64,000 bases of DNA from a virus (Duplodnaviria; Caudoviricetes), in the IMG/VR virus record IMGVR_UViG_3300035365_000057, positions 12,555 to 76,554 of that record; one strand, written 5' to 3'. Made by a program: the position numbers and the translations under genes. This document shows, one piece after another, positions 4,862 to 28,411 of this stretch (position 1 is the stretch's first letter; each line of letters opens with the position of its first letter). Under the pieces are notes generated by a model, which saw nothing but the letters and a program-made list of their open reading frames with translations, searched no databases and was not told where the DNA came from.

Positions 4862-7800
4862 TTATTTCTCTCCCGGAACCCTATTCTTAAGAGCCGTTCT
4901 GGCTTTCAATTTCTCTCTTTCCATTGCAGCATCATCTGACATTTTTTGCAATTTCTCTTCGTGCTTCATTCTTTCTTTTTCTAAGGCAACTTTCTTATCT
5001 TCAATTTCTTTCTTCATTTTCTATTCACGAATCTTATTATTGAATTCAAATTGCTTAGATGCTTCTTCTGAAGCTTGTTTTCTTTCTTCTAAGGCCTATC
5101 GACCGATTTCAAGTATATCTGGTTCGCCATTATTATTTGCATCGGTATCAACAGAACCCATATATGCATTAAGTTGAGCTACAGCTATCTTAGTCGCATT
5201 ATCTTGATCAATCTTGTATTTTTCAAGATCCATTTCAGCTTCTTTAAGCATAAGCTCTTCTTCTTTGATTTCATTCTGCATCTGAATAGCTTGCTGTTCT
5301 CTCTGAGCTTGTGCTTCTTCCATTGCTTGCTGTTGTTGCATACGTTTTTGTTCTATTTCTTCAAGTCTATTCTTGATCATAGTAACATTATCCATAGTAA
5401 TGATCTCAGCAATATCTAACAAACTAGCGCCATTCTACATAGCTGGCTACATGAGATTCTTAAGAGCTTCTATCTGTTGCTGATTCTTAGTAGTATCTTC
5501 AATAAATACATCCATATCTTCATAGAAGAAATTATCAGACAGTGTTATAAATGCTCTTGTTGCATCATCTAATACATACTATATCGATGTTTTATTATCT
5601 TTCCATGCATATTTAGCAGTATTCAGAAGCATTGTTATTGCTTCTTTTTTAACTCTGTTATGCACCCAGAACCAAGGTTCAGTAATATGAGCAGACTGTA
5701 TCACAGATCTTTCTACATTACCAACTAATTCATTAGAAGAAATTGCACCTTCTCTTTGCTTACTTACCCCTGATATTTCAGATAACATTGATTCGATCTT
5801 ATCCATAAGATTAATATACTAATCTATAGTATTAGCCATAGTAAGATCTAATGCTGATATCTGATTAAATGTAGAAGAGTTATGGCATATCGTAAAATCA
5901 TCGAGTAAGAACAAATTATCTCTGTCCAAAGTAAAACCATAATATTCGTCAATACCATAGTATTCTATTTTGAACATAGATCGATTTATGTCTTTCTGAT
6001 GAGTTTTATCTCCCTTAGCTTGTTTTCTAGCTATCTTGGTAGGTATTCTTTCACATCCTGACAGAATGGATACAACATAAGAATATTCGCTAACGTTCTT
6101 ACACAGTTTAGAAGGTTTTAACTTTTTCTTACGTATAGATACCTTCATACCTAAACTTCTAGCTATAAAAGCAAAATCGTAAGCAATATCTTTTCTATAG
6201 TCTACCTAACAAAAACCAAATCTTTTCTTTTTTGGGTCATACCATCCATCAGAGTCTATCAAACCTGCTAGTAACTCTAGTCTATCTTGCTCACAACAGT
6301 AAATATATTCTTTAGGAATGTATTTATTCTCAAAGATCCCTAATCGTTTCAGATTTTGTATTATATAGTTTGTTGGTTTATTTCTATAACCTTTTTCAGA
6401 TTTATCTGTAAGTACTAAACTTACGTTCATAGCTTTTTCGTTACGTACCTTATCGTATCTTACTCGCATATTATTATTCAAAGCAAATTGCTCCAAATAA
6501 TCCATTATTTCATAATCTGCAGTTGTTATAGTTGGTTTGGATGTCGTACCATCTCCTAACCAAAGCCCAAGCAGGTAAGGATCGAAACTATTCCTTTGTT
6601 CTCCAAAATAAAGTCCATCTTTACGATATAAGTAATATTTATCTCTACATGAAGGAGTTCTATTAAATCTCTCCATTAATGTAATTGGAGTATCTGTCTT
6701 AAAAGTAACTTCTCCGGTATGATGGTTCTTAAATCCATAATATATCTCATGCTTACTATTTACGATTTGTGGATTTCCTCCAGAAGATGGAGTAATCTTG
6801 TACATATGATCTTTTCCATGGTGAAGTTCTAGTACTGTACGTGGAGTTCCATCAGCTCCCATTACTTTATCAAACAGTTTAATATCTTCTACATTTTTTA
6901 AAGATCCGTCTGCCATTATTACTTTAGTACCCTTAATGTGACATTTACCACCTTCTCTACCAGGTATATCCCAACCTTCTTCGTACGGATTAACAAAGTT
7001 AACTCCTAGCGCAGATAAATAATGCATCCATTTAGACACATCAATATTCATTGATTTAGGTATTTGAGTAATATCCATGGTTATGATCTTACCTTTGTCT
7101 CTAGCCATAGCTAACTCAAGTCTATACCATATTATAATATACATATATTGTAAAGGCTTCATCATACTTACTAAGCTTCGTGGTCTGCTATTAGTATTAT
7201 TGTATATTACACCTGTATATGGTAATCTTTGAGCATTTGGATTATCTGCAGATATGTGTTGATACTCTAACGGTTGTATACCGATATATAAGTCTTCTCC
7301 AACTCTATAACCTTCCCAAACATCAACAATCCATTTCCATTCAACATTCAATTCGTTACCTGTAACTTTATAACTTTCATCAACTTCATATTCTTCAGGT
7401 TGTCCTGTTTCTTGATTCAAGATAGTAACGAATCCAATCTTTCTAAAAGACTTCCAACAACAATGCCATACGTGAACATTATCTGAACTTTCAAAAGGAT
7501 TGGATGTGAATCCGTTAATTGTATGTGTTTTTATATGAGGATAATCTAATGAAGTCTTACCTAATTTTGGAGTAATACCACCCTTAGATGCATCATCCAT
7601 TAATTCTAGTAACTAGTCTAGCTATTTTTCTGACATCTTATCATAAAGCCTATCATATACTTCAGTAGATGACATTATCATTTCATAGCAGCACCATTCG
7701 GCATCGTGGATGAATTCTAGATCAGAAGTATCAGTATCATAATCAAAGTATATAGGATTTATTCTTTCCATACAAGGTTCTCCATTCTATATACCTACGT

Positions 7801-8431
7801 AATATACTTCTTCACCGCCAATCAGAGCATCTTTCCAACCTTTAAAGAATTCGTGAGTTATATTTAATTTATTCTTTAAATAATTAAGACTATGATATGC
7901 TACAGATTCTGCTATATCCTTATAGTCTTTACTCATATATTTTTGTATCTATTCAGGTTGCATTACTTCACCAGATTGTAATGCCTATTGATATCTAGCT
8001 TGATCTTCAGAACTTAATCTACTCATAATTTCAGCCTAGATATAATCAATTAGCATCTACTTGGCTTTATCCTACATCTCACTAGTAGCTATATCACTTG
8101 TTCTGCTAACTCTGAAATTGAAAGGTCTTTTTGTTTCTTCACCTAATAATAAATCTATTTTTGGTTTGATTATATTATAGTCTTGTGCTGTAGCAGGGAA
8201 ACCATCTTGCTGTTTAAATGGGTTTGTAACATACTTAAGATCTTTCTCATTATATATACTATTATATAAATCATAGTATGTCTACATTTCTTCTTTCCTA
8301 GTACGTGTATTTCCATTTCTGGAACCACCTTGACTACGACCTATAATATAATCAACGCAAGCTTCTTGCCACTCTTTTGTCTTCTTAGACATAGGTAGCT
8401 TCTATATTGGCATTTGATTAATATTATTCAT
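4862..8431 (-). CDS. Portal protein with intein (1189 aa precursor, TAG read-through)
   Basis: ATG 8431 MNNINQMPI(TAG)KLPMSKKTKEWQEACVDY; track ORFs 5096, 5579, 5819 and 6206 share the frame of TAA 4862; typical position between TerL and MCP. Confidence 0.85.
5879..6943 (-). mobile_element. LAGLIDADG/DOD homing-endonuclease intein in portal (355 aa)
   Basis: N-junction GGK|CHIKGTKVIMADGS; LAGLIDADG blocks YLLGLWLGDG and LLAGLIDSDG; C-junction YGFTLDRDNLFLLDDFTICHN|S. Confidence 0.92.
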
Positions 8432-11245: not shown

Positions 11246-11408
11246 AATCTCTAGTCTATTTAAAAATTGAATTAAAGGTAGAAAGCTTTCTTGATTTTTA
11301 GTACTTTCCTTGAGGAGCTACCATTACCTCCAACTACCTCTTCACTGTTGATCTTAACCTAAGAGGACATACTCTGCTATCAGACTTCAAGTATGCAGTT
11401 TTTATTTG

Positions 11409-11480
11409 TCGCCCCAGTCTCGATTCGAACGGACAACTCGAAGGTTAGAGCTTCGCATATTACCTTTATACTATGGGGCA
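11409..11480 (-). tRNA. Amber suppressor tRNA (anticodon CUA), probably Gln-charged
   Basis: TGCCCCA/TGGGGCG acceptor; anticodon arm CGAAG-CT-CTA-AC-CTTCG; T loop TTCGAAT; T stem has one bulged A; CCA not encoded. Confidence 0.9.
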
Positions 11481-12284: not shown

Positions 12285-12570
12285 TTTCTTTATTTATTTC
12301 ATTCCGCCAACGTGTAATATCATCTTTTGCTACGGCGTCAGTAACAACAATTATTTTTTGTTTATTATTATCTTTATACCATTTAGAAAGTACTAGTATA
12401 ATATCACCAGCTTCATAGTCAACAACTTCATTCTAAGTTATTACTTGACCATCTTTTTCAGCTAGATATATACTACGTATATCTATATCGTTTGGTGTAT
12501 TCTTTAATACGTTATGTTCCTAATCGAAACATACAACGTCATTCCATTGATTTACTAATAATTTATCCAT
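12271..12570 (-). CDS. Hypothetical 99-aa protein with two TAG read-throughs, likely paralog of 12573-12914
   Basis: MDKLLLVNQWNDVVCFD(TAG)EHNVLKNTPNDIDIRSIYLAEKDGQVIT(TAG)NEVVDYEAGDIILVL...KQKIIVVTD; TGA overlaps next start. Confidence 0.65.
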
Positions 12571-19663: not shown

Positions 19664-19746
19664 TTAATAGATGACAACTTGAAAGAAAGTGACAGCCTGG
19701 AAAGACAGGCATTTTCATTGATTATTTACTTAAAACAATATATCAT

Positions 19747-19923
19747 ATGAAAAAGTTTATCAAAGAAACAGTATTAACAGCAATTTGTACATTTGCAATA
19801 CTATCATTTTGCGCATGGGATGTTCAATGGATTGCAAGCTGCCATGTAATATTACGTGTGTTTTTTGCAGTATGGTGCATAGCCATTGGCGTACTCAATC
19901 GAGTATATCTTGAAAATAAATAA
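19747..19923 (+). CDS. Small membrane protein (58 aa)
   Basis: MKKFIKETVLTAICTFAILSFCAWDVQW...; two hydrophobic segments. Confidence 0.55.
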   Translation: MKKFIKETVLTAICTFAILSFCAWDVQWIASCHVILRVFFAVWCIAIGVLNRVYLENK

Positions 19924-20111
19924 ATACGTATTATAAAAACTTAATAACTTCCCAAGTTGTTGAGGGCACCAGTTTTCCTTGTGACTTAGTTAGAAGCTGG
20001 CACGGCTACTATCCTGATATAAAGATGGTAATAAATGTGCATAAATTACTTAATTGTAAATCTAACGGTGATAAGTCACAGGGTTTAGGTGTAAAACACA
20101 TTATAATAGAT

Positions 20112-20240
20112 ATGGAATATACAAAAGAATACAAATACTGGGTATATCATAGAATTATGAGTAATCCAAAAGATAAACCATTTCTATTAGCTCATTTAAA
20201 ATTATTAGATGAGATTTTAAAAGAAATAACAAACTTATGA
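20112..20240 (+). CDS. Small hypothetical protein
   Basis: MEYTKEYKYWVY...; stop overlaps next ATG (ATGA). Confidence 0.5.
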   Translation: MEYTKEYKYWVYHRIMSNPKDKPFLLAHLKLLDEILKEITNL

Positions 20241-20458
20241 TATATATCATATTAGAAACATCATCAGATAGCATAGAATCTTTTACAAGGATTATATTTG
20301 CATCAACAGATAAAGAAAAAGCTGAAGACAAATTCAATGAATGCAAAAATCTTTGTGCAAATACAAAAGATGATAAATGGTGGAATGAATTTAATTTCAT
20401 TAAATATGATGATGAAACAAACCAACAAAAAACAATAGAAACAATAGATAATACATAA
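20237..20458 (+). CDS. Hypothetical protein
   Basis: 73-aa ORF. Confidence 0.6.
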   Translation: MIYIILETSSDSIESFTRIIFASTDKEKAEDKFNECKNLCANTKDDKWWNEFNFIKYDDETNQQKTIETIDNT

Positions 20459-20485
20459 ATTGCAATCTTTAACTACAATAAATAT

Positions 20486-20686
20486 ATGAAAAAAGAATAT
20501 GTTTTAGAACCATTTGTAGGAGACTATGACTCATCTTGTTTCAACTGTGATTTAGCTGATTACTGTATGGGGAATACTAAAACATTCGAAAAAACAAATC
20601 AATCTATTGAAGAAATAGACAAATTAATAGAAGAATGTTTATATGATGATTTCTGTTACATTAAATTGCATACATATGAAAGATAG
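20486..20686 (+). CDS. Small Cys-containing protein ending in TAG
   Basis: 66-aa ORF, CFNC motif; terminal codon TAG 20684-20686. Confidence 0.6.
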   Translation: MKKEYVLEPFVGDYDSSCFNCDLADYCMGNTKTFEKTNQSIEEIDKLIEECLYDDFCYIKLHTYER

Positions 20687-20750
20687 TTTAGAAGCTTTAG
20701 GATTTGGTCTATTAATAGGCCTATTATTTATTATTGGTTTAATATTATAA
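20676..20750 (+). CDS. 24-aa hydrophobic peptide
   Basis: MKDSLEALGFGLLIGLLFIIGLIL; start overlaps the upstream gene end. Confidence 0.4.
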   Translation: MKDSLEALGFGLLIGLLFIIGLIL

Positions 20751-20911
20751 GATATTCTATACACATTTCGCTTAGTAACTATTCTGTGAAAGGCAAATAT
20801 CCTTCTACAATCGTGAGATTGCAATTTACTTCGTTAAACTATAGTATTATGAGTCAGGTATGACCTCATAAAGAGTTAGGTAACGCTAACATACCATATT
20901 ACTATAGTTAC

Positions 20912-20968
20912 TCTTCTAATGCAGCCAGATAAAGACAGTCACAAGCCTGTTTAATGCAGAGTGGAAGA
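20912..20968 (+). ncRNA. Twister self-cleaving ribozyme
   Basis: P1 TCTTC/GAAGA, TAATGCAGC, P4 ACAG-TCACAAGC-CTGT, then TGCAGAGT; matches the conserved blocks of twister env9-type RNAs as I recall them (UAAUGCAGC, GCGG-UUACAAGC-CCGC, GCAGAGU). Confidence 0.85.
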
Positions 20969-21498
20969 TCGTACGATTGAGTTTAGGTTTGACTCATAAA
21001 ATAAAGTAACTAATCTTAAAGCAAGCAACGGAGAATAACGCTGTACCAAAACAGAGGACAATGGTGCTTGACAGTATGACACTAACTGATAAATAATGTG
21101 TTGTGAAAATTAATTAAAATTCATGAATTTTACTCAAGCTATATAGTGTGAGTAAACGTACAGCCGCACGTTAGTGGGTTACAGTTCGTATTCTAGCAAG
21201 AAAAGAATATTGTATTGCCGAAAACTGGGGACATGTAAATAATACGTAGGTTCCGTACACATGTTGAAGAAACCAATCGAATAGTAAGCATAGAGAAATA
21301 GGCAAACGACCAGCCAAAATGGTAGTGCTTACAAATAAAAAAGATAAGAGAAAGTGATATCCGTGCATATATAGATATCTTAGTATAGTTAAGGCCTCAA
21401 GCTGCACTGAGCAAATATATTACACTTATCTTTATTAAACTCTTTACTGAATTGCAGCCTAAATATGTCAAAGGTAGCGCATGAAAGTAAAGAGTTTC

Positions 21499-21679
21499 TA
21501 CACTGTGAGAATCAGTGTCAACTTTGTGGGGCTTATATTTAGATGAGCGCACAAAAGTAAACCTATATTGTGTGTAGCATTTCGAAAAATTATATTTAAA
21601 CTAGCTAGATAATTCGTAGAAAGAGTGATATCAGTATAGAGAGACTTTTGCATCTAATATTAGTGCAGAGAAATCAAAG
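21499..21679 (+). ncRNA. Hatchet self-cleaving ribozyme 1 (with ~100-nt insertion)
   Basis: P1 ACACTG-TGAGAAT-CAGTGT, CAA, CTTTG, TGGGGCTTATA, TTAGATG/CATCTAA stem, TATTAGTGCAG, closing CAAAG. Confidence 0.85.
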
Positions 21680-21783
21680 ACAAGATTATATCCTGAGTGT
21701 ATAATCTAGTAAACTACTAGAGGCTGGTCACCTCGGCAGGAAAGCGCGACCATGGAGAGGTTTGTGGTAGTACCTCTCCGCTC

Positions 21784-21889
21784 TTTATGGTGAGAATCCA
21801 TGACAAGCATGTGGGGCTTATATCTTTATGAGAGACAATACGGTAAAAATACCCTTCATAAAGTATTAGTGCGGACTTAAAAATCATGC
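21784..21889 (+). ncRNA. Hatchet self-cleaving ribozyme 2
   Basis: P1 TTATGG-TGAGAAT-CCATGA, CAA, GCATG, TGGGGCTTATA, CTTTATGA/TCATAAAG, TATTAGTGCGGACTTAAAAAT, closing CATGC. Confidence 0.9.
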
Positions 21890-22054
21890 AATGTAACAAT
21901 TTACTTCTCAATCTCGCGTATAAATACTTCACGTTACAAATCTTGTTACATTTATTTGGGCTAAGTGTAGCCTAGTCATTAGCCACTTTATAAAACCTTC
22001 TTTCTTTTATGTAAAGATCTAGCATATTAGTCTGTGAAGATCGATATGCTAGGT

Positions 22055-22139
22055 GCACTCATGAGATAACCTTCACGTGGTGAGTGTGTAAGTAAGGGTC
22101 TAACAAAACTTCCTATTCTACCCTGAAACTAATATCTCA
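22055..22139 (+). ncRNA. HDV-like (theta-type) self-cleaving ribozyme
   Basis: P1 GCACTC/GAGTGT with first G.U pair; P2 TGAGATA/TATCTCA; P3 ACC/GGT; L3 TTCACGT; P4 AGGGT/ACCCT; J4/2 A-C(22129)-TAA. Confidence 0.85.
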
Positions 22140-22142
22140 AAT

Positions 22143-22227
22143 GCCCGAATGGCGAAATTGGTATACGCATTTCACTTAAAATGAAATATCCATACAGGGT
22201 GTGCGGGTTCGACTCCCGCTTCGGGTA
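22143..22227 (+). tRNA. tRNA-Leu (UAA)
   Basis: GCCCGAA/TTCGGGT acceptor; TTTCA-CT-TAA-AA-TGAAA anticodon arm; long variable arm; GCGGG-TTCGACT-CCCGC. Confidence 0.93.
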
Positions 22228-22276
22228 CAAACACTTTTAAATTAATTTAAAGTTTAATTCATTAATTATCAAAATT

Positions 22277-22534
22277 ATGGAAAAAATTAAAGATTTTCTC
22301 AAGAGAAATGACATTAAGCTAGCAGCAAATGCTAAGGCTAAGAAACTTATTGAAGGTAATGCAGAAGAAGCAACAATCGCCGTGGCTATGAAGTCTACGA
22401 AGGCTTACAAAGAGAACGCCGAATTACGTAGTCTTTGCGACGAAATTATTTCCGCTGCCGGTAAGCAACAAGCTGAACGTAAAGAAGCACCGACTAGCAC
22501 ATCCGATTGTCCTGGAGAAAGAACCAGATGGTAA
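22277..22534 (+). CDS. Hypothetical protein
   Basis: 85-aa ORF with TATCAAAATT-ATG leader. Confidence 0.7.
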   Translation: MEKIKDFLKRNDIKLAANAKAKKLIEGNAEEATIAVAMKSTKAYKENAELRSLCDEIISAAGKQQAERKEAPTSTSDCPGERTRW

Positions 22535-22601
22535 AAATGAATAAAGCTCTATATAGTATTTCTACCATATAGAGCTTTTTAAACTATTAAATTAATTTAT
22601 T

Positions 22602-23837
22602 ATGACTAAATGGCAAGAATCGTGCATTACAGCACTCGCTTCATCACCATTCGCATGGGAAGCCTTTAAAATGAAGCAAAGAAACAAGAACTTATTATGG
22701 CAATATATAAATAGAATATGGCCGTATCACCGTATTGTAAGTACTAATAAAAAGTTATCGAAAGATTCACAAATGATTAATGAATTGAATAGATTACTAG
22801 TATATCTTAAAGCATATGATATAGAATCTAATTGTAATTATGATTTCTCATCGGCTATTGATTTTATAATTACAGATAAAGATATGATAGCAATTGAAGC
22901 AGCACGTTTATTACCAGATTCTGCGAGAAATATATATGATACTAATAGATTTAATGTTACTCTTACAGAAGGTAATTCGGTATCAGGTACTACTGATATT
23001 ATTGAACTTTTAGCGAATCAACAAGTTGGAAATCATATACATTTCAATGCTATTTGTGGACATATGAATAAACCTAAAGAACAAATTAAAAATTGTATTC
23101 ATGGCATTGAACTTTTAATATGTACTTATAATTCGATACATGAAACGCAAAAAGAAACTAAATTAATTAAGAAAAAGATTAAGACATTAAATTGGCTAAA
23201 TATTGGTATTGAAATAGAACATGATGCTTCAAATGAAACCTCTGAAAAAATTGTGAAACGTATTTTACAACAAAATTGTACAGAATACGATTCTGGTTAT
23301 GATGGAGGAATGCGTTCTCGATTACGAGAAAATAGGATTCGTCTTAACGGTATTAAAGGTCTTAAAGGTTTATATACTTTATTACAAGATATGCAAGAAA
23401 ATGCAGCAATTGCTAATAATAGTAGTGTGCATATGCATGTTGATTGTAAATTTGATAATTCTTACGAAAGAATAAAATCAAATGTTAACAGTATGGTTAA
23501 CGAAGGTAGAAGAAACTTTGCAGATCTAGAACAAACTTTTGTAGATATTATTCTAAATTATGAAATTTTAGAAGAATTTGTACAAATTTTTGATTTACAT
23601 AAAATATCGTGTATTTCTGATTTTGAAAGATGGGTAGATTTGAACGGTATTATTCGATTTAATAATGAGTTTAATACTGTTGAATATCGTTTCTGCATAC
23701 CAAACTTTAATTATTCTGATTATGTGATTCAAATATTATTCTTAATACATATTACAGAATGTATTAAGCATAATTCTCCTATTAACAAAAATTACGTAAT
23801 AATGCTATATAGAATAATGAATAGTATACGTAATTAA
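22602..23837 (+). CDS. Putative amidoligase (COOH-NH2 ligase type 2 family) domain protein
   Basis: C-terminal motifs IGIEIEH, SSVHMHVD, TVEYRF. Confidence 0.65.
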   Translation: MTKWQESCITALASSPFAWEAFKMKQRNKNLLWQYINRIWPYHRIVSTNKKLSKDSQMINELNRLLVYLKAYDIESNCNYDFSSAIDFIITDKDMIAIEAARLLPDSARNIYDTNRFNVTLTEGNSVSGTTDIIELLANQQVGNHIHFNAICGHMNKPKEQIKNCIHGIELLICTYNSIHETQKETKLIKKKIKTLNWLNIGIEIEHDASNETSEKIVKRILQQNCTEYDSGYDGGMRSRLRENRIRLNGIKGLKGLYTLLQDMQENAAIANNSSVHMHVDCKFDNSYERIKSNVNSMVNEGRRNFADLEQTFVDIILNYEILEEFVQIFDLHKISCISDFERWVDLNGIIRFNNEFNTVEYRFCIPNFNYSDYVIQILFLIHITECIKHNSPINKNYVIMLYRIMNSIRN

Positions 23838-24245
23838 TAATTAAATTATATTTTAATAGCAAATCGGGAATTAAATGACGATTGACGCTGGACAGACAGC
23901 TGCGCTTGGATGCGTATTTTTAGAAATGTATGATATCAGCATACATTTCAGGTCTCCGACTTTGACAATTATTCCTGATATGTTTAGTTGTCATAACTGG
24001 GATTAATGTTAATAGGTAAGGCCATTACCTAAAACATTCGGTGCCACAACTAGTTCTTGCCAAACAAATGTGGATGGGAGTAATATATTGGAGTAGCTAC
24101 CAATATATTATTCAGCTCTTCATTGGAGTGGTGAACCAATGATTCTAGCCCTATAGTTTAAACATACGTAAAACAAGCCTTAAGAAAGCTTTTGCAATAG
24201 TCGTTCATTGCTAGGGTACATTATTAACTTTAAAATATTATCAAA

Positions 24246-24518
24246 ATGATTAAACCAGTAAATCCAAGGCATCATATTATAGTATATATGCCATTAAGAT
24301 TATTAATGTTCTTGATTAAGAAGAAAATTTTACACCAATGGTTAACTTATGTTATACGAGAACAAACAGGATTAAGAACTGCACCAGAAATAGTCAGATT
24401 CCTAGTATGCCATAAAGAAAACACATTTAGTGGATTATTTCCATGGTCTTATACCGTAGAAGGATCAGACTTTTGGTTAGATGTTGATCGAAAATGGCGG
24501 AATAGTATATGGAAATAA
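24246..24518 (+). CDS. Hypothetical protein
   Basis: 90-aa ORF with TATCAAA-ATG leader. Confidence 0.65.
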   Translation: MIKPVNPRHHIIVYMPLRLLMFLIKKKILHQWLTYVIREQTGLRTAPEIVRFLVCHKENTFSGLFPWSYTVEGSDFWLDVDRKWRNSIWK

Positions 24519-24694
24519 TATTATTGAAAGTAATCATAATAATATTTGCTATGATTACTGGAGGATTTATAACTCTTAGTTTTGTTTGTTTGTTAATTCT
24601 TGAAAAAAAGAAAAGCATCGAGTGCGCAGAATATGCAACAATAAGCTTTATAATAATGCTGTTATTTATAATCTATACATATAACATTAATTAA
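24509..24694 (+). CDS. Small membrane protein
   Basis: 61 aa, two hydrophobic helices. Confidence 0.55.
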   Translation: MEIILLKVIIIIFAMITGGFITLSFVCLLILEKKKSIECAEYATISFIIMLLFIIYTYNIN

Positions 24695-24707
24695 AATTAT
24701 TATCAAA

Positions 24708-25163
24708 ATGGAAAATTTAGAAAAAAAGAAAAGCCACAACTGGATTTGGTGGTTAATCGCGATGATTATCGCATGTGTTACAACTGGTTTCATTGTCCAC
24801 AATAACGGACCTGAGATTAACAAACTCCTTGATCGTGGAAACGATATTGGGTTACAAGAAGGTATTGTATGCGAAGATACGGCATATGCTGAGCCAAGCA
24901 TACAAGATATTCTCGAATTTAGAGAATATGCTCGTGAATGCAAACGAATTGATAGTATATTTATAACAATGCCGGATGTGGTTCTTATTGACATACTCAT
25001 GAATCACGGTACAAGTCTATCAAATTCGGATATTGTATACATATATGAAAACAATCCGAAGACATATAATGCAGTGCAATCAGGGGCAAGAGCTCAAAGG
25101 TATAAAGAACAAATTGAACCAGACAGCTTACCAACAAAGCCTATTCCAGATAAATTGGAATAA
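24708..25163 (+). CDS. Membrane-anchored hypothetical protein
   Basis: 151 aa with N-terminal hydrophobic segment WIWWLIAMIIACVTTGFIV. Confidence 0.7.
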   Translation: MENLEKKKSHNWIWWLIAMIIACVTTGFIVHNNGPEINKLLDRGNDIGLQEGIVCEDTAYAEPSIQDILEFREYARECKRIDSIFITMPDVVLIDILMNHGTSLSNSDIVYIYENNPKTYNAVQSGARAQRYKEQIEPDSLPTKPIPDKLE

Positions 25164-25234
25164 CTTTTTTTATTTGTGTCACTTTACCTTTTTATGTTTT
25201 AAGTCATACTAGTCTGTGAGGATAGGTATGACGT

Positions 25235-25353
25235 CCTCAGAAGATGACAAACCTGTGGGGCGTAAACTATGTCCTATTTTAAGAGTTAGGCTTGCATAAC
25301 TCAGTAAATCAGGATGCAAGAACATAGTGATCGTGCGGACGTTAAAATCAGGT
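25235..25353 (+). ncRNA. Hatchet self-cleaving ribozyme 3
   Basis: CCTCAGAAGATGACAAACCTGTGGGGCGTAA...GATCGTGCGGACGTTAAAATCAGGT, near-identical to the published hatchet construct blocks as I recall them; ACTATGT/ACATAGT insert stem. Confidence 0.92.
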
Positions 25354-25552
25354 ACTCCAATAAGAAATAGTTTGACAGCTTATTTCTGCTTACGAGTTAA
25401 AACTAAAGTAAGATAGTCATATTAAAAATTAACAATAATGTAGATTTTTGTTCTTTTCTAATAACAAATGTGTAATCGGTACTGATCAGAATAGAAAATC
25501 CCAGAGTACCCTGGGCGTCATCAAAATGTTTAACCAAAAAAAATTTATCAAA

Positions 25553-25780
25553 ATGAAAGTAATCGGACATTTTCTGGTAGTAGATCAAGTGTTTACAGAC
25601 TTACCAGAAACAAAAACAGCTTTAGTCGATATCAAAAGTATCGCAAACATAAGCGAAGTAAAACTTAATGAAAAAGATTGTAGAAAAATTTATTTCAACA
25701 ATTGCGCCCCATTAAGTGTAAGCAACACAATGGAAGAAATCATAAATACTTTAGAAGATGCATACACAGAAGAATACTAA
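25553..25780 (+). CDS. Hypothetical protein
   Basis: MKVIGHFLVVDQV... preceded by TATCAAA leader. Confidence 0.65.
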   Translation: MKVIGHFLVVDQVFTDLPETKTALVDIKSIANISEVKLNEKDCRKIYFNNCAPLSVSNTMEEIINTLEDAYTEEY

Positions 25781-26012
25781 AGTGTTTCTGACAGCAATTA
25801 AATTCAATACCACTCATTATCTTGCAAACATGCTTGCTGTAACTAAAATACTCGGTATTCCAATGAGTATGGCAAGAACATTATGCAAGAATAAACCAAA
25901 TGATTGGATTGAAATTGTGCCTTATTTCGAGTTAAAAAGTAAGCATACTCTTGATGAAATACTTACTGAACTTGATGAATACGAAATCGAAATCAAAACA
26001 CTTAATCAATAA
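25758..26012 (+). CDS. Hypothetical protein
   Basis: 84-aa ORF. Confidence 0.6.
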   Translation: MHTQKNTKVFLTAIKFNTTHYLANMLAVTKILGIPMSMARTLCKNKPNDWIEIVPYFELKSKHTLDEILTELDEYEIEIKTLNQ

Positions 26013-26784: not shown

Positions 26785-26995
26785 CTAAAACTTAGTATAC
26801 ATGGTGGATTCAGTCAACCTAAGAACTATTTTATAACCAGAATCCTAATGGAAGCCCAAAAGGCAAGAGTACAAGGGACCATACAACGGTCAACCAATTT
26901 ATATTGGTCTGGAGAAGAGCAGGGGTTATCTACTAAATAAGACGTACGAATAAGTAGAAATAGTTCTTTTTATTTAAAAATCAAAATTAAAAAAC

Positions 26996-27798: not shown

Positions 27799-28149
27799 CA
27801 AATAAAAGAGGCTCCAAACTTAGAATCTTTGAATCAATAGTTAATGTATGTCTACGCGTGAAAAAAGTACGGTGTACAAAGCACGGCGGTACAAAGACCT
27901 GAATTAACAGGTCTCATGCAGAATCTTTGAATCAGCCATGAGGAGCTACCGTGAACCACTGATCATGAGTCTGAGATCGCGACAATAAGATTGTCCTCTA
28001 GCAATAGAGAAAAGCTTTAGTCGTGATATCAAGTCAGACAGAATATGCAGAATCTTAGAATCTGTATATAGTAATAAATATGCTTTATACACATATTCGT
28101 ATATTATCAAGATCAGAATTATAGGACTAACCATCCTAAGACCAAATAA

Positions 28150-28411
28150 GGCTAGTAACTTTGGTCGGTCACTAGCCTACTATTGACTGTTAGGTCATTA
28201 TACAATCGTTAAGACGGGGCTCTCGGATGCCCCTACCTCCACTAAGTAATGTTTACGTAATTAATTTACACAAGAAACGTTCTATTTTATGTATATTATA
28301 TTAAGGGGGTAAACGGTTTTTGATTAGCGATGAGATGTAGTGAATAGGTCAATAAAGCCGATAAATGGCAAAACTTTCGTAACAGACTACACTCGTATCG
28401 CCGCAGCGTGA
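28150..28411 (+). ncRNA. ssrA: Circularly permuted (two-piece) tmRNA gene
   Basis: Acceptor piece first (GAC-GGGGC-TCTCGGAT-GCCCC-TACCTCC-A, 28213-28241); coding piece later (GGGGGTA...GGTTTTTGA from 28305); G3.U70 pair; three P2 helices between the pieces; tag frame GKTFVTDYTRIAAA-TGA at 28367-28411. Confidence 0.88.

Follow-up and report, generated by a model that had tools for sequence, protein, structure and literature searches.

Hatchet ribozymes (RF02678) are found mostly in Crassvirales (10.64898/2026.03.07.710320). According to the papers on this class, the P1 helix almost always comprises exactly 3 or 6 pairs, for a reason that is unexplained, and about 90% of hatchets carry an upstream P0 hairpin, without which cleavage is possible and the purpose of which is also unexplained (PMC4604424). 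Residues A67-U70 are called non-conserved, can be replaced without loss of cleavage and form an intermolecular helix in the crystal (PMC6561176). In addition, hatchets occur in circular RNAs of 357-567 nucleotides (nt) and 35% GC, in 34 clusters (10.1101/2022.07.19.500677). What small ribozymes do in bacteria and phages has long been a question, and we found no described role for hatchets. Here we analyze a ribozyme array in a window of 64,000 nt (positions 12,555 to 76,554 of the IMG/VR record IMGVR_UViG_3300035365_000057), which belongs to a viral contig of 76.5 kb that is 77% complete. The array includes three hatchets, A, B and C, that agree with the described class in the full consensus, a P1 of 3 or 6 bp, a cut at the base of P1 and the preceding P0, but differ in having a downstream partner, whereas the accessible portions of the class papers mention no such partner, nor a second cut, ligation or circle (PMC4604424; PMC6561176). 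It appears moderately probable that these hatchets cut twice and ligate themselves into circles. This reading combines computed results (motifs, conservation, covariation of the loop L2 and one circular contig) with cleavages, a strand exchange, a ribozyme-catalysed ligation and an early action on host or phage factors that we infer. The ribozyme classes, the RAGATH motifs, P0 and the proposal that such ribozymes process polycistronic transcripts (PMC6765202) are already known; new are the downstream second site, with L2 covariation, in most hatchets and the proposal of phage-templated circles. The elements directly concerned are the following (^ marks a predicted cut).

21437-21497, plus strand: P0 stem of hatchet A; the same element, with compensatory changes, precedes hatchet B in the related phage cr114_1
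21500-21679, plus strand: hatchet A (RF02678, 78.9 bits; Rfam span 21496-21679; predicted cut 21499^21500), with a 6-bp P1, a long P4 insert and the L2 guide GAG at 21668-21670
21680-21784, plus strand: cargo of predicted circle A, with variable hairpins, a P0 stem (21754-21779) and the docking triplet CUC (21781-21783)
21785-21889, plus strand: hatchet B (RF02678, 99.2 bits; Rfam span 21781-21889; predicted cut 21784^21785), with the L2 guide GACU at 21874-21877
21890-21981, plus strand: cargo of predicted circle B, with a large variable loop on a stem, a hairpin (21957-21974) and the second site AGUCA^UUA (21974-21981)
25203-25232, plus strand: P0 hairpin of the GUGA-loop family before hatchet C, which would close the mRNA of the open reading frame (ORF) at 24708-25163
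25237-25353, plus strand: hatchet C (RF02678, 88.4 bits; Rfam span 25233-25353; predicted cut 25236^25237), with a 3-bp P1 and the L2 guide GACG at 25338-25341
25354-25523, plus strand: cargo of predicted circle C, with a stem-loop (~25354-25420), a hairpin (25500-25515) and the second site CGUCA^UCA (25516-25523)

All three hatchets exceed the Rfam gathering score of 51, and the core residues (C20-A22, U28-G31, G63-G66 and A73-A75) are complete in each, with a shortened L2 in hatchet A that is common to its relatives. Downstream of the hatchet, the second site consists of a hairpin, four bases complementary to L2, one free base and three bases complementary to P1, such that positions -5 to -2 complement G66-N69 of L2 and positions +1 to +3 complement the 3' strand of P1. 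Among the dereplicated hatchets from more than 100 related loci, fetched by pattern scans, this site is present in 64 of the 66 of type B and in all 59 of type C (123/125 together), as well as in 36/36 held-out metagenome loci of both types that were fetched separately, compared with 100/1842 and 21/552 (4-5%) in permuted-L2 controls. The two partners change together: GACU in L2 pairs with AGUC in the site in 37/38 cases and GACG with CGUC in 27/28 (cross matches, 0/38 and 1/28), GACA is found with UGUC in locus L005 and in the distant loci L249 and L263, and both the G and the U state of L2 recur in a second P1 lineage (L216, L235). A complete 4/4 match of L2 to the hatchet's own upstream flank is seen in just 1 of the 66 type B hatchets. 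Position +1 of the second site is an invariant U, and 122/123 sites have A at position +3. Hatchet A lacks such a site; its L2 matches the three bases before the cut of the next hatchet, GAG with CUC in 14/15 and GAU with AUC in 8/9 (own upstream flank, 0/15 for GAG), counts that are not independent because hatchet A is linked with its cargo. Overall, the long-range pairing between L2 and the downstream site is almost certainly real.

The second line of evidence comes from RNA. We compared contigs from four RNA runs with positions 19700-26000; X1 is a gut metatranscriptome, and X3-X5 contribute small shares. One X1 contig, 314 nt long with the same 30 nt at both ends, spans 25237-25520 with 2 mismatches at a depth of 237, which corresponds to a 284-nt circular form. 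Its joint, 25520 to 25237, with three letters ambiguous, falls at the predicted bond. In hatchet C, U1 falls at position 25237 and marks the cut site according to the crystal structure (PMC6561176); there is no ribozyme at 25521, but a hairpin and then CGUCA^UCA, which mimics the own cut site of hatchet C. The neighbouring X1 contigs end at 25152 and begin at 25542, with depths of 25 and 39, short of both sites. A pattern scan of viral DNA contigs did not turn up the joined form; its 8 matches share one native P0, seven of them with their own downstream site and one truncated, and tandem copies of the hatchet unit were found in 0/230 loci. A weak hint of the first cuts comes from RNA contigs with starts lying 11-12 nt inside the cut of hatchet A (two studies, X4 and X5) or of hatchet C (one). 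Taken together, these findings make it quite likely that the second cut happens and likely that the circles exist in cells.

We envisage the following course of events. The ribozymes would punctuate the early plus-strand transcript, each cutting at or near its own 5' end, just behind a hairpin. After this first cut, L2 (G66-N69) would pair with positions -5 to -2 of the second site, and positions +1 to +3 (UYA) would displace, by strand exchange, the three weak pairs at the bottom of P1; the same active site would then cut the second site and release the three-pair product. The 5'-OH end of the hatchet would re-enter P1, and the reverse reaction would join it to the cyclic phosphate held by L2. 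The predicted product is a circle of ribozyme and cargo, 194 nt for B (21785-21978) and 284 nt for C (25237-25520), and the second cut of C would also free the next mRNA. Hatchet A would capture the end made by hatchet B, resulting in a 285-nt circle (21500-21784), and the twister and hepatitis delta virus (HDV)-like pieces would remain linear.

A first-pass annotation of this DNA, made from the sequence alone, had proposed that four ribozymes release RNAs of about 580, 285 and 270 nt that could be circularised. Fragments of 582, 285 and 270 nt do follow from the four cuts, but the last one is split by the second hatchet site AGUCA^UUA at 21974-21981, which predicts a circle of 194 nt and leaves 76 nt as a linear piece. 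Circularization gains support for the hatchet-headed pieces, with different boundaries (285, 194 and 284 nt, the last outside the annotated span), but not for the 582-nt twister fragment, for which there is no covariation signal for closure and the 3' end of which could base-pair with P1 of the twister here but not in most relatives. Closure of the 270-nt piece from hatchet B to the HDV-like site was rejected as well, its 3' end not matching L2, and the 194-nt circle took its place. When folded, the three fragments showed no end-to-end ligation stems. A joint of the kind expected in RNA data is seen in one contig, the X1 contig of hatchet C, and that putative circle lies beyond the span considered initially.

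Several observations weigh against circles formed by two cuts. The covarying rows are related, so that the independent events number about 4-5, not hundreds, as counted by lineage and not by tree, the alignable core being too short; the pairing of UAA in P1 with UUA in the site (15/15) is confounded with clade; and the distant candidate L242 lacks a second site. The data are contigs, not reads, and a covalent circle is therefore not provable from them. There is a single circle from a single run of assembled contigs, with no matched DNA run, and the same joint could arise if a reverse transcriptase, on reaching the cut 5' end, switched to the UCA within the second site. No joint is listed for circles A or B, where the coverage is partial, thin and derived from divergent strains, and X1 contigs cross the second site of B and the twister site.

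Some of these points form the basis of an unlikely alternative under which the downstream motif is a long-range clamp or off-switch in a linear RNA of 200-350 nt, the circular contig arose artificially, by template switching or in assembly, and the array is plain 3'-end punctuation. In the RNAalifold result, the motif is paired with both L2 and U62-G63 of the core, a possible inhibitory fold, the circle comes from a single contig, and processing of polycistronic transcripts is what reviews propose (PMC6765202). A clamp leaves unexplained, however, the invariant U at +1, the free base at -1 and the P0-like hairpin before the site, as well as the covariation of type A hatchets with the cut end of the next ribozyme. 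Nor does it account for the dominant contig being joined precisely at the predicted bond, with flanking contigs that stop short of both sites.

If hatchets do cut twice, with L2 holding the ends, the circle might still be sealed by the host RtcB or another host ligase, a possibility that we regard as quite unlikely. The ends would be 5'-OH and 2',3'-cyclic phosphate, which are RtcB substrates (PMC4604424). The first-pass annotation had suggested a search for an RNA ligase elsewhere in the genome; neither RtcB nor PF09414 was found in the 77%-complete contig or in five complete relatives, and the search with PF09511 gave nothing usable, as there was no positive control. RtcB is present in Bacteroides thetaiotaomicron, which served as the search control, so that host ligation stays a rival. 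Furthermore, the literature searched, which did not extend to most subscription journals or to the 2015 discovery paper, held no account of hatchet ligation, which counts against ligation by the ribozyme, nor of a second site or phage-templated circles. Against a host enzyme stand the absence of a detected phage ligase, the L2 helix, which sets the 3' end in register with the pocket, and the product structure, in which the catalytic pocket holds the 5'-OH of U1 and could also accommodate residue -1 (PMC6561176). On these grounds, we lean slightly toward ligation by the hatchet itself.

Under another alternative, the second cut is selected to provide the next unit, mRNA or noncoding RNA (ncRNA), with a defined 5'-OH end, and the circles are harmless by-products. 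The second site of hatchet C does lie 6 nt before an ATG (20-40 nt in relatives), and A and B carry a cargo, a loop or hairpin set on a stem, that varies greatly. Nevertheless, this explanation is very improbable: the L2 helix is needless for cleavage (PMC6561176) but would be required for ligation, type A hatchets keep the L2 match with no second cut to make, and the cargo of C is conserved. The latter includes a stem-loop (~25354-25420) with covarying helices and no Rfam family, and its loop probably pairs with a downstream GUC/GCC-type triplet that shows compensatory changes, a probable pseudoknot read by eye. Finally, both cargo modules and small ORFs are swapped between the conserved copies of the ribozymes, but that the ribozymes are selfish or neutral repeats, chiefly recombination anchors for module swapping, can hardly be right given the retained catalytic residues, stem spacing and long-range covariation and an array that carries no mobility gene.

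Self-closing hatchets would differ from the known systems that they resemble. The hatchet-bearing 'viroid-like' circles are, similarly, small and low in GC, with one hatchet in one polarity, but are read as replicons of unknown host, mostly aquatic and without a phage link in the accessible part of the report (10.1101/2022.07.19.500677); the likeness is one of description. In the present case, the circle would be DNA-templated from a phage genome, with a proposed closure route; the unit is encoded linearly in phage DNA in more than 100 genomes, whereas viroid-like replicons are defined by having no DNA template. Retrozymes and viroid and satellite RNAs also employ self-cleaving ribozymes to release a unit that is circularised (PMC7229834; PMC6765202), and circle A would likewise use two tandem ribozymes. 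Unlike these, the array shows no terminal repeats, retrotransposition or rolling-circle replication, and circles B and C would need one ribozyme and an 8-nt second site; hatchets A and B are similar over 43 nt only, and there is no repeat beyond 8 nt at B and C.

In the circles formed by group I introns, the ribozyme picks a second site by a short guide pairing and closes itself, much as proposed for the hatchets, which differ in their chemistry, with a 2'-OH attack and a cyclic phosphate. Here, there is also no sign of splicing of the flanks, a route that we rejected: the RNA contigs contain no skip joint, and L2 does not match the upstream flank.

If correct, the mechanism would explain the P0 hairpin, the sticky yet dispensable L2, the P1 of 3 or 6 pairs and the hatchet circles of metatranscriptomes. 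It would also mean that DNA phages make programmed circular RNAs, that some 'viroid-like' circles are phage transcripts, which calls for caution, and that RNA can be circularised compactly, without proteins, with just an 8-nt downstream tag. Stable early circles would suit decoys or guides. The more extended proposal, that hatchets are self-excising and self-ligating circularisers, that the circle panel of crAss-like phages serves as early decoys or guides against host defences and that the metatranscriptomic 'viroid-like' circles are these products, is tentative.

The hatchets are embedded in a longer array, the remaining elements of which are listed below.

20761-20912, plus strand: RAGATH-6 RNA (RF02686, 120.8 bits, E 2e-18, below gathering), the 3' end of which would be made by the twister cut
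20913-20967, plus strand: twister ribozyme, type P1 (RF03160, 50.6 bits, E 5e-9, short of the gathering score of 67.2; predicted cut 20917^20918)
20968-21103, plus strand: RAGATH-7 RNA (RF03159, 59.8 bits), the first stem of which is reduced or replaced in this genome
21104-21436, plus strand: uncharacterised spacer, a slot of ~100 to more than 1000 nt in relatives, often ORF-like at its end
21979-22054, plus strand: predicted linear 76-nt piece, ending in a GUGA-loop hairpin (22019-22052) before the HDV-like cut
22055-22139, plus strand: HDV-like ribozyme with P4, from sequence inspection and covariation (predicted cut 22054^22055; catalytic C at 22129)
22143-22228, plus strand: tRNA-Leu(UAA), downstream of the HDV-like ribozyme at a spacing that varies in relatives

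The tandem arrangement of a twister, two hatchets, an HDV-like ribozyme and tRNA-Leu that was claimed initially is real, as judged from Rfam, sequence inspection and conservation in about 100 relatives. The Rfam models suggested as a check gave a mixed outcome, with the hatchets above gathering, the twister below it despite the low E-value, and no match for the HDV-like ribozyme at E<=10. That the 1.4-kb tract is free of ORFs is correct for this genome, where it contains no plus-strand ORF of at least 50 amino acids; small ORFs are found within the tract in other members of the family, so the ORF-free state is not family-wide. RAGATH-6, RAGATH-7, hatchet C and, further downstream, RAGATH-9 and a permuted transfer-messenger RNA (tmRNA) had been missed. 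The usual order in relatives is RAGATH-6, twister, RAGATH-7, a variable slot, an optional hatchet A, hatchet B, hairpins, the HDV-like ribozyme, often a small ORF and often tRNA-Leu, with hatchet C located 1.3-3 kb beyond the rest. This conserved order of ribozymes, combined with the variable slots, indicates that the ribozymes are fixed posts between which the intervening material is swapped. RAGATH-7 scores 138-160 bits in the related phages cr114_1 and cr4_1; a pattern scan for RAGATH-6 yielded no matches, the pattern being too strict. RAGATH-6, -7 and -9 (RF02686, RF03159, RF03146) and ribozyme-rich phage islands (PMC8216279) are similarly known motifs near clustered, interchangeable ribozymes; what differs is that the present analysis maps their order in Suoliviridae and the boundaries of the products. 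Adjoining RAGATH-6 is a hydrophobic 24-codon ORF (20676-20750, plus strand), the mRNA of which would end with RAGATH-6 at the twister cut.

The stems said to precede all four cuts in the array are likewise real and better than shuffles, with z-scores, in array order, of -3.5, -4.1, -2.4 and -5.4 and distances to the cut of 8, 2, 5 and 2 nt; the first is the closing stem of RAGATH-6, and those before the hatchets are the already known P0 hairpins. Of the 79 distinct hatchet cuts, 73 have a stem of 7 or more Watson-Crick pairs that ends no more than 6 nt away, compared with 0-8 of 79 when the position is shifted by 15-25 nt, and these stems belong to many unrelated sequence families, including hairpins immediately after ORF-like sequence. 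A stem of at least 7 bp is present before the HDV-like site in 29/30 relatives and before the twister in 15/16, counts that are less independent because the loci are closely related. A cut just behind a hairpin would provide the upstream RNA, ncRNA or mRNA, with a defined, hairpin-protected 3' end without proteins, and on the simplest reading, forming such an end is what the hairpin and ribozyme do together. The anatomy and conservation of the array lend good support to the initial proposal that the transcript would be cut without proteins into hairpin-ended RNAs.

The twister is of type P1, with P1, P2 and P4, a U^A site and both pseudoknots; in relatives, pseudoknot T1 shows compensatory changes (CAC/GUG, GAC/GUC and UAC/GUA). 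One RNA contig (X3) ends 12 nt inside the twister cut, and another contig spans the cut. A divergent twister variant is found in the slot after RAGATH-6 in L002 (6150-6215), L010, L021, L029, L084 and L104, and was missed by Rfam in L002. By sequence inspection, the fold of the HDV-like ribozyme is complete: a nested double pseudoknot with G1 at 22055, a G1-U wobble, a CPEB3-type L3, C22129 in J4/2 and a P4 of 5 bp with a 20-nt loop. In 55 related copies, P1 and P2 covary, with P2 altered on both sides, and the catalytic C is kept in 52, the other three not being parsed. In most relatives, the P4 loop (22100-22119; for example, L001:6680-6692) contains a pyrimidine-rich motif, UCUUCCAGUUU, that has diverged here and could be an antisense or protein site.

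Since tRNA-Leu is located downstream of the HDV-like ribozyme, it is not processed by the HDV-like cut. The ribozyme-tRNA unit of the first-pass annotation is not conserved, given that many relatives have small ORFs in between and some lack the tRNA. Theta ribozymes are also HDV-like ribozymes next to tRNAs in code-15 gut phages that form the 3' end of the upstream RNA (PMC10879173), but the ribozyme in this array keeps P4, lies 5' of the tRNA and is predicted to cut behind a hairpin rather than at the tRNA 3' end. We rejected this assignment: the cut is 88 nt before the 5' end of the tRNA, not within 5 nt of a tRNA 3' end, and the minimal theta form has no P4. In L039 and L108, past the HDV-like ribozyme, an HNH-nuclease-like ORF that contains in-frame TAG codons seems to interrupt or duplicate tRNA-Leu.

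Judging by the similarity of the array, synteny with cr4_1 and cr114_1, genetic code 15 and the capsid and portal matches, the virus is a Suoliviridae-like crAss phage. When TAG is read through (code 15), coding density rises from 49% to 83%, and the capsid and portal genes match PHROG families under this code. Among annotated phages, the array tract matches gut crAss-like phages and unannotated gut phage contigs, and no others; the two relatives inspected, cr4_1 and cr114_1, belong to Suoliviridae and have the same gene order as the window. A minus-strand tRNA with a CUA anticodon (11408-11480) is an amber suppressor, and in the late genes of the phage, TAG encodes an amino acid. Under code 15, the portal and terminase-like parts at 4865-8431 (minus strand) form one 1189-amino-acid frame, probably reflecting a real TAG stop that is read through in translation. 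The array itself is located near the start of a plus-strand block of small genes running into the replication genes, a position that corresponds to the early region of crAss-like phages (PMC10136315); there were no cultured members of the family by the date of that review (PMC10136315). A promoter scan gave counts not above those in shuffles, and in a PHROG search with ten early proteins, a sigma factor was the sole one named.

Several further RNA features were noticed in the window. A 400-nt ORF-free segment (23840-24240, plus strand) is covered by RNA contigs in all four runs, each starting at 23871-23893, has no Rfam match and is a candidate ncRNA. In addition to RAGATH-9 (26810-26968, plus strand, 133 bits) and the permuted tmRNA (28182-28411, plus strand), the early region contains a weak RAGATH-20 match (27896-27978, plus strand) near three short repeats (27818-28062). 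Upstream of the array, a short conserved twister-like core (19934-19977, plus strand), with an outer 6-bp stem, a UUCCCAAG loop and GAGGG, recurs, flanked by unrelated sequence, in at least 17 related loci; it has no Rfam match, and the depth of its RNA contig is very high (~1000 in X1).
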